9,456 bases of DNA from Candidatus Pampinifervens yunnanense (GTDB lineage Bacteria > Aquificota > Aquificia > Aquificales > Aquificaceae): the NCBI GenBank assembly GCA_037926845.1, contig JAXSPD010000059.1, forward strand, positions 1 to 9,456, written 5' to 3'. Below, in pieces: positions 9,057-9,213 of the stretch. Made by a program: the position numbers and the translations under genes. Each line of letters starts with the position of its first letter. Position 1 is the first letter of the stretch. Below the pieces are notes generated by a model, which made no database searches, was not told the DNA's origin, and saw nothing but the letters and a program-made list of their open reading frames with translations.

Positions 9057-9079
9057 CTCTCCTTCCTCCTTTTTAAATT

Positions 9080-9161
9080 AAGGAAGGTAAGGGTCGGAAT
9101 TATAATCCTCTGCCCCCGTAATGGAGGCAATAATAAAAGTCTCCGCCCTCTTACCTTCCTT
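9080..9161. repeat. Imperfect inverted repeat / structured element between recombinase start and alr
   Basis: AAGGAAGGTAAGGGTCGG (9080-9097) pairs with CCGCCCTCTTACCTTCCTT (9143-9161) in blocks of 11+3+3 bp, with a 2-nt TC bulge in the right arm and one unpaired T in the left arm. An inner hairpin at 9111-9129 (TGCCCCC GTAAT GGAGGCA) has one mismatch. There is no flanking T-run. Confidence 0.65.
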
Positions 9162-9171
9162 ACTTACCTGC

Positions 9172-9183
9172 ATTATGTTGAAT
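9172..9183 (+). other. dif-like XerD-arm half-site (tentative)
   Basis: ATTATGTTGAAT matches ATTATGTTAAAT of E. coli dif (GGTGCGCATAATGTATATTATGTTAAAT) at 11 of 12 positions. It lies 11 nt beyond the inverted repeat, at the presumed right prophage junction. It is short and AT-rich, so a chance match is possible. Confidence 0.25.
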
Positions 9184-9213
9184 ATTGTAAGATAATAAAA
9201 GGACAATTTTGAT

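Follow-up and report, generated by a model that had tools for sequence, protein, structure and literature searches.

The window analysed here, a stretch of 9,456 bp that makes up the entire contig JAXSPD010000059.1 (G000:C59) of the Candidatus Pampinifervens yunnanense assembly GCA_037926845.1, carries an inovirus prophage between tpx and alr, with a gene for an IS110-family recombinase at its alr-side end. We studied the 157 nt from the start of this gene to alr, where the initial annotation had noticed a structured leader and proposed either a bridge-RNA-like non-coding RNA or a retained attP hairpin. A hairpin in this leader is very probably the target guide of the recombinase, either as a bridge-RNA target-binding loop or as the equivalent of a short seekRNA. 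The phage most likely picks its integration site by RNA base-pairing, because the internal loop of the hairpin spells both sides of the chromosomal site that was entered. The guide and its target comprise the following features.

9078..9165, minus strand: guide hairpin of outer stem, internal loop and inner stem-loop (fold, covariance model and covariation)
9130..9139, minus strand: 5' guide, similar to a left-target guide (LTG), CUUUUAUUAU, matching left flank and core at 10/10
9111..9129, minus strand: inner stem-loop parting the two guides (fold; helix 3 with compensatory change in 4/5 pairs)
9100..9108, minus strand: 3' guide, similar to a right-target guide (RTG), GGAUUAUAA, matching at 9/10 over TTATAATCC(A)
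403..407, plus strand: host flank on the tpx side, GGATT; in recombinase orientation the right target (RT) reads AATCC, to which the variable nucleotides of the 3' guide correspond; contiguous with tpx in the empty site L085
408..411: core copy at the tpx-side junction, ATAA (TTAT in recombinase orientation)
9192..9195: core copy at the alr-side junction, ATAA (TTAT)
9196..9201, plus strand: host flank on the alr side, TAAAAG; in recombinase orientation the left target (LT) reads CTTTTA, to which the variable nucleotides of the 5' guide correspond

Along its 5' side the loop reads CUUUUAUUAU (9139-9130), the same sequence as 9201-9192, which comprises the host flank and TTAT at the alr junction; read on the plus strand, 9130-9139 (ATAATAAAAG) recurs at 9192-9201, adjoining alr. 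The 3' side, GGAUUAUAA (9108-9100), is the reverse complement of 411-403, which holds TTAT and the host flank at the tpx junction. The 5' guide consists of six variable nucleotides and UUAU and the 3' guide of five variable nucleotides and AUAA, and with the recombinase strand as top strand the loop follows the strand rule of the IS621 target-binding loop exactly. The initial annotation had already noticed a nine-nucleotide identity with 403-411. This identity is real, although the segment concerned, GGATTATAA, is the complement of 9100-9108 and not of 9098-9106, an offset of 2 nt. Its suspicion that the match might be fortuitous had overlooked the second half at 9192-9201. With the junctions fixed by an empty site, a match of the 11 variable guide positions to both flanks has a random probability of ~6e-7 at the base composition of the window, and the match is therefore not due to chance.

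Overlapping the guides on ATTAT yields a predicted attB of CTTTT-ATTAT-AATCC in recombinase orientation (GGATT-ATAA-TAAAAGG on the plus strand), and both guides together thereby specify a 15-bp site in the tpx-alr spacer. An unoccupied tpx contig (L085; ...CATGGATTATAATAAAAGGACAATTTTGATAT) subsequently proved to contain the predicted attB without any mismatch. This contig, found via a Tpx protein search, is 1,529 bp long, encodes a Tpx with 99% identity, and reads ...ACACATCAGCATGGATTATAATAAAAGGACAATTTTGATAT upstream of tpx. It corresponds to window positions 1-411 fused directly to 9196-9215. ATAA is single in attB and present at both prophage junctions (408-411 and 9192-9195), which places the crossover within ATAA. 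The element spans 412 to 9195 or, equivalently, 408 to 9191, and it was inserted without target duplication apart from the core common to both junctions, which is at most 4 nt long and not narrowable to a dinucleotide. The comparison of the unpaired segments with both junctions and the empty site, proposed in the initial annotation, thus gave 10/10 and 9/10 matches and an exact attB. It had also argued that an inverted repeat at the empty tpx-alr site would mean host sequence. The covariance model finds no hairpin in L085 even at E <= 10, so that the hairpin is phage DNA.

An exact search of the genome contigs for the predicted 20-nt empty site returned two unrelated chance matches only (Cyclobacteriaceae and Acutalibacteraceae), and the 15-bp target does not occur in G000 at 0 or 1 mismatch. 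Hydrogenobacter hydrogenophilus shares the alr-tpx arrangement and has a different spacer sequence at the integration position; the alr loci of other relatives (L016-L029) were unusable as empty sites because tpx is not adjacent. To the right of ...TTTTGATAT in window orientation, L085:1-70 matches the right flank of the window for 20 nt and diverges exactly at the alr start codon (GATAT|ACGCTGAG... versus GATAT|GGCAAG... in the window), which could reflect another insertion, a rearrangement or a contig-end chimera.

The inverted repeat upstream of the ribosome-binding site, as described from the sequence initially, is borne out by a repeat search, which placed its arms at 9076-9091 and 9150-9165 (94% complementary). 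Minus-strand RNA of 9057-9213 folds with a minimum free energy of -50.7 kcal/mol, compared with -31.9 +/- 3.3 kcal/mol for 200 shuffled sequences, none of which folded as well (z = -5.76). The fold proceeds from the outer stem through a 5-bp stem and an internal loop of ~10+10 nt to the inner hairpin, and so contains the enclosed second hairpin (9111-9129) and the unpaired segments noted earlier. An intrinsic terminator, dismissed by the initial annotation as well, is ruled out by the lack of a T-run and by a count of 0 terminator-like sites in 8950-9456. The hairpin sits within a 135-nt left end (9191-9057), where 26 nt precede and 21 nt trail it, and is followed by AAUUUAAAAAGGAGG. The covariance model (R1) matched 9073-9164 on the minus strand with 65.5 bits (E = 3.7e-17), compared with 14.9 bits on the opposite strand. 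G-U is the most frequent pair at five stem positions of the family alignment and would turn into A-C mismatches if the other strand were read. Likewise, only when the recombinase-sense strand is read does the bottom-strand match precede the top-strand match (5' to 3'), as is the guide order in IS110-type RNAs. Since the G-U pairs, the model scores and the guide order agree, we take the recombinase-sense strand as the strand that is read, and the predicted structure is specific to it.

Homologues of the recombinase with 40-64% identity were found at 53 hot-spring metagenome loci and in several Aquificales genomes, and the same hairpin lies upstream of nearly all of them (about 50). Covariation analysis, which had been suggested as a check, showed the structure to be conserved. 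Among 39 distinct hairpin sequences, 93% of cells are paired and 18 of the 23 pairs have compensatory changes on both sides; the covariation score of 0.533 compares with 0.223 in shuffles (0/500 as high) and with <= 0.19 when the 3' partners are slid. By this covariation, a structured element occupies the non-coding end upstream of the recombinase, which is the position known from the IS110 group. Conservation extends to the stems, to both loop ends (5' AUUAU and 3' UAUAAU) and to the left-end boundary TTAT|CTT(A/G)(C/T), whereas the 5-6 nt preceding each loop end are hypervariable.

Of 34 unique loci, 11 have a 5' guide whose six variable nucleotides are the same as the six bases to the left of the core, and 13 agree in at least 5/6, while 10,000 flank permutations gave a mean of 0.6 matching loci and a maximum of 5. 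Among the genome loci, the 5' guide matches the left flank at 10/10 in L109, L114 and L116 and at 9/10 in L115; in L011 and L052 the match extends over 11 nt. The 3' guide predicted the far junction in five elements. Its reverse complement directly follows the conserved right end at 10/10 in L056 (8.8 kb downstream) and at 9/10 in L060, where the left side also matches at 9/10 and a 9.4-kb prophage results; L070 has a right junction of 9/10 after the conserved end, and L109, a 2,126-bp insertion sequence (IS) in a complete genome, has one of 10/10. Chance alone is expected to give about 0.3-1.5 right-junction matches of 9/10 per 10 kb, and such matches without a preceding conserved end (L113, L116, L037) were taken as chance. 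In many of the non-matching cases the flank is the element's own conserved right end, namely GCCAGCTTAT in 8 contigs, GCCAGTTTAT in L065 and L082, CCAGTTTAT in L058 and GGATATACCTTAT in 3. We assign these left flanks to circle or tandem junctions. At least 8 contigs have the ends abutted as GCCAGCTTAT|CTTACC; L057, which is among them, contains two hairpins 8,128 nt apart.

The prophage, its recombinase module and the adjoining genes are arranged in the window as listed below.

1-324, minus strand: tpx, 5' part
412..9191: inovirus prophage body, 8,784 bp including one core copy (ends from element-end analysis and the empty site)
near 5xx-1423: Rep (HUH, G2P type), Pfam REP_ORF2-G2P 4.6e-15
5893-6954: Zot/pI assembly ATPase, Pfam Zot 6.6e-21
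7578..9056, minus strand: IS110-family DEDD/Ser recombinase, 492-aa open frame
9058..9069, minus strand: ribosome-binding region of the recombinase, AAGGAGGAAGGAG, 9 nt past the hairpin
9214-9456, plus strand: alr, start

The recombinase combines a DEDD RuvC-like domain with a Tnp domain carrying the catalytic serine in an SG motif, and we classify it from its sequence as a distant IS110-family member. It matches PF01548 with 41.4 bits (E = 1.6e-10; cut-off 29) and, weakly, PF02371 with 17.1 bits, under the cut-off of 21.3; profile matches were obtained to IS621 (8wt6, 1.3e-8) and ISCro4 (9t56, 1.6e-9). D7, E44, D84/85/88 and the SGTS motif (257-260) are invariant among four recombinase homologues, and the latter motif aligns with SGSS of ISCro4. 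A tblastn search of 50,697 phage records with the recombinase and a scan of viral contigs with the recombinase alignment gave no match. Conservation with the homologues stops near residue 366. Within the poorly conserved C-terminal 125 codons of the frame, a different frame at 7601-7828 (minus strand) encodes an HU/IHF-like protein (PF00216, E = 1.6e-11), and a 78-aa open reading frame without a family follows at 7378-7614 (minus strand). The HU-like protein is a candidate accessory DNA-bending factor.

The closest parallels are the bridge RNA and recombinase of IS621 and the IS110 group (Durrant et al. 2024, PMC11208160; structures 8wt6-8wt9) and the seekRNA of ISEc21, which is 58-74 nt long, has target matches only and is enough for transposition (Siddiquee et al. 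2024, PMC11187229). With IS621 the prophage shares a DEDD/Ser recombinase and a guide in the internal loop of a stem-loop, located in the non-coding left end upstream of the gene. In both, the loop repeats the top strand of left target plus core along its 5' side and has the reverse complement of core plus right target on its 3' side, with overlap on the core; the core is present at both junctions, and a promoter formed by the joined ends is a possible further parallel. The differences from IS621 are considerable: one loop instead of two, with no donor-binding loop found; a guide overlap and shared core of 4-5 nt (ATTAT/TTAT) with guides of 10 + 9 nt, against a CT dinucleotide in IS621; a very distant protein (profile E = 1e-8) with an open frame of about 490 aa; and, as cargo, an entire 8.8-kb inovirus. 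ISEc21 is likewise IS110-type, with an upstream non-coding region and a short RNA in which the bottom-strand match lies 5' of the top-strand match. It differs in being a 1.5-kb IS aimed at a coding motif in IS3 transposases, while the guide described here is phage-borne and directed to an AT-rich, promoter-like spacer.

By analogy with these systems, the hairpin would be transcribed in the direction of the recombinase, as or from the 5' leader of its mRNA, and a recombinase-RNA complex might pair with both strands of attB. As in IS621 and ISEc21, circular phage DNA could then be exchanged with attB inside TTAT, using a phage junction (...AGT-TTAT-CTTAC...) that is conserved across the clade. 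Each junction would retain half of the match after integration, and the same RNA might thus unite both ends for excision; in ISEc21, circles form only if the donor is flanked by the target halves (PMC11187229).

The bridge-RNA-like role suggested in the initial annotation is supported by the upstream position, the matches to both flanks, the strand rule, the empty site and the covariation, but as a one-loop rather than the canonical two-loop form. A donor-binding loop complementary to the joined ends, left donor (LD) and right donor (RD), was not found. The covariance model run over whole elements detected a single hairpin per element and no donor loop, and a k-mer scan of whole elements (the window, L060 and L070) revealed no segment matching LD plus core together with the reverse complement of core plus RD. 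Folds of the right-end-proximal regions on both strands contained no donor loop, and the loops of a 170-nt palindrome (7045-7214) have no donor match. The GUAAG-type tails after the hairpin vary without a change of the donor and show no covariation. Long-range left-end repeats were confined to the IS elements of group A, with none in the window or L060. The 10-mer CCAGCTTATC within L060 and L056 was rejected as a donor guide, as it sits in unstructured coding DNA. Because no donor-binding loop was found, the system appears to use one loop and most resembles the short ISEc21 seekRNA; what is new here is the Aquificales clade with this one-loop form. The donor ends are conserved across subfamilies and have direct repeats, and our guess is that they are read by a protein or by an unrecognised part of the RNA.

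A canonical two-part bridge RNA whose donor loop escaped recognition, being split off elsewhere in the phage, buried inside coding sequence or too diverged, seems rather unlikely to us. Such a loop is common to all well-studied IS110 bridge RNAs, the leaders of the distant relatives L005 and L006 have two stem-loops, and the right end of the compact group A IS elements has an inverted 55-nt copy of a left-end part. Against this stand the single hairpin per element and the fruitless search for LD plus core and core plus RD in the three elements scanned, the lack of matching loops in the right-end-proximal DNA and the palindrome, and the narrow left end, which spares just 26 nt before and 21 nt after the hairpin, with a tail that varies while the donor stays constant. 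Possible, though on balance doubtful, is a guide that truly works with one loop: the RNA would choose the chromosomal target only, the phage junction (CAGY-TTAT-CTTAC and the adjoining direct repeats) would be read by protein, and the constant guide parts AUUAU/UAUAAU would restrict the members to TATAAT-type -10 boxes. Candidate readers would be the long C-terminal extension of the recombinase, the HU-like protein of the module, or both. The element would land in promoters, and the host -35/-10 (here TTGCCA-17-TATTAT) would drive guide and recombinase in the lysogen. If true, this would be a hybrid of RNA-guided target choice and a classical protein-read attP in a thermophilic virus. If one loop suffices, a smaller, possibly thermostable programmable recombinase might be obtained, with target programming separate from donor recognition.

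Two further explanations dispense with a guide RNA. The hairpin could act as DNA, either as an attP of folded single-stranded DNA (ssDNA) used by host XerCD, as in CTXphi, or as an ssDNA guide in the packaged strand. Inovirus genomes are indeed ssDNA, plus-strand DNA of the region folds too (z = -4.5), and a two-strand guide and its complement are formally equal in pairing potential. CTXphi resembles our phage in being filamentous and in having an inverted repeat close to one of the prophage junctions, but here the crossover, at ATAA 408-411 / 9192-9195, falls outside the hairpin (9078-9165), 27-114 nt away, whereas CTXphi-type integration would place it within a dif-like site made by the hairpin fold. 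In addition, a recombinase is encoded by the phage itself, and attB is matched by the loops to either side of the crossover, at a distance from it. G-U pairs and model scores point to the recombinase-sense strand, which is not the one with the phage structural genes, and the same hairpin, perfect at both flanks, serves L109, a 2.1-kb IS without another recognised gene. A folded phage-ssDNA site is disfavoured on this ground in particular, we consider any such DNA role highly improbable, and the retained attP hairpin of the initial annotation is abandoned. The other explanation, a cis-regulatory 5' untranslated structure affecting translation or stability of the recombinase mRNA with incidental flank matches, is extremely improbable. 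It would suit a hairpin lying 9 nt from the ribosome-binding site, with host-derived upstream bases that pair with an A-rich stretch and the ribosome-binding site in the fold, but it is at odds with loop-flank matches that recur above permutation in many independent elements at different sites, and with the predicted empty site. A regulatory function alongside guiding is possible.

Several observations besides the missing donor-binding loop weigh against the hairpin being an RNA target guide, or against parts of that interpretation. In about 20 of the 34 loci the left flank does not match the element's own guide, and some of these mismatches, such as L003 (6/10) and L032/L037, are unexplained. 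The hairpin ends 9 nt from the ribosome-binding site with no terminator beyond, so that a discrete small RNA is only a possible product. Rfam gave no matching family at E <= 1 over the whole window, only a spurious match of a miRNA model on the plus strand of the hairpin. The recombinase scores 89.9 bits (E = 1.7e-25) against NCBIfam NF033542, where the cut-off of 140 is not reached. Finally, the promoters in the window are consensus matches alone, and the junction of subfamily B has no comparable promoter.

With an RNA target guide as the preferred reading, nature provides here a complete virus with an integration site that would be written in a short RNA loop, a case well supported by an empty site predicted beforehand and by guide-flank covariation across dozens of elements. 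A thermophilic, deep-branching clade of Aquificaceae with a compact one-loop hairpin of ~90 nt would thereby join the range of RNA-guided IS110-type recombination, and the inoviruses of this clade might reach different sites by altering about 11 nucleotides. Filamentous phages with an IS110-family transposase at one end are described for Neisseria (Nf/MDA-phi) and Thermus (phiOH16, Zuza8/27; PMC11437467, PMC7058167); they likewise are inoviruses in which Rep occupies one end and an IS110-family gene the other, and integration is thought to proceed via that enzyme. Within the literature text returned by a full-text search, we found no guide RNA described for such phages.

Three promoter-like features lie at the phage ends and the alr-side junction.

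423..428, minus strand: -35-like TTGACA at the phage right end (in silico), half of the proposed junction promoter
9184..9189, minus strand: -10-like TACAAT inside the left end (in silico)
9192..9220, minus strand: promoter-like site at the alr-side junction, TTGCCA-17-TATTAT (10/12; consensus scan), in host DNA

TTGACA-17-TACAAT would arise only on joining the phage ends, across a predicted circle junction AGTTTAT|CTTACAAT, resembling in silico the promoter across the joined ends of IS110/IS1111 circles. TTGCCA-17-TATTAT points towards guide and recombinase in the lysogen and towards tpx at the empty site; integration in the window parts tpx from this promoter-like site. The 15-bp target holds back-to-back -10-like hexamers, TATAAT (plus strand) towards alr and TATTAT (minus strand) towards tpx, the latter with TTGCCA 17 nt upstream. 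From the constant guide parts, the whole clade is expected to target ATTATA/TATAAT-containing sites. Directly inside the phage right end are direct repeats, TTGAC-N8-TTGAC in the window (441-437 and 428-424, minus strand) and ATGAACCCTT twice in subfamily B (e.g. L060:9490-9534), where a protein may bind to recognise the donor, or which may belong to the Rep origin.

The Tpx beside the prophage is 94% identical to that of H. hydrogenophilus, which identifies the host flanks as Aquificaceae. On other contigs, G000 has its own tpx (80% amino-acid identity; G000:C22:27878-28201) and alr (62%; G000:C55:10488-10706), which are not adjacent to each other, whereas the window flanks (1-324 and 9214-9456) have 94-99% identity to Hydrogenobacter-like Tpx. 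The contig was thus probably derived from another, related organism within the bin. The alr alignment is lost over the final ~24 nt of the window.

Among the homologous elements, those of group A with the same hairpin are small: L109:399-2524 (G101:C1) measures 2,126 bp, L070 ~3.2 kb, and L039 has tandem copies 3,744 nt apart. In L109, the hairpin matches both flanks perfectly, the recombinase frame is split (199 + 309 aa), and no other gene was recognised in the 2.1-kb IS. At the group A right end, the first 9 nt of the left end recur as a direct copy, followed by a 55-nt inverted copy (98% identical) of left-end positions 25-79. The distant relatives L005:1-327 and L006:1000-1294 (about 40% identity, from another family of the order), with their two stem-loops in the leader, show their identity with the left flank along the 3' side of the loop (TTTACCTATT in L006, ATAGCTCACT in L005), which is the opposite guide order.

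The left flank of L032 and L037, GTTAAATTAT, matches the 5' guide of L033 and not their own guides (TATAGATTAT and AGAAAATTAT); all three are from AGQM01, one metagenome, and the pattern suggests guide swapping, tandem occupancy or half-match insertion. Compared with L052:143-237, the hairpin of L011:2621-2682 (G010:C6) has lost the part between repeated GCCAC motifs by deletion and is now a simple stem-loop; it keeps the 5' guide only, which still equals the flank over 11 nt. In L036, L045, L047, L056 and L063, a common sequence ending ...TTTTTAGAACAGCCTCAG replaces or interrupts the left end or the hairpin upstream of the recombinase, and it may be another mobile element or a recombination product. 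In L056 this sequence abuts the hairpin directly.
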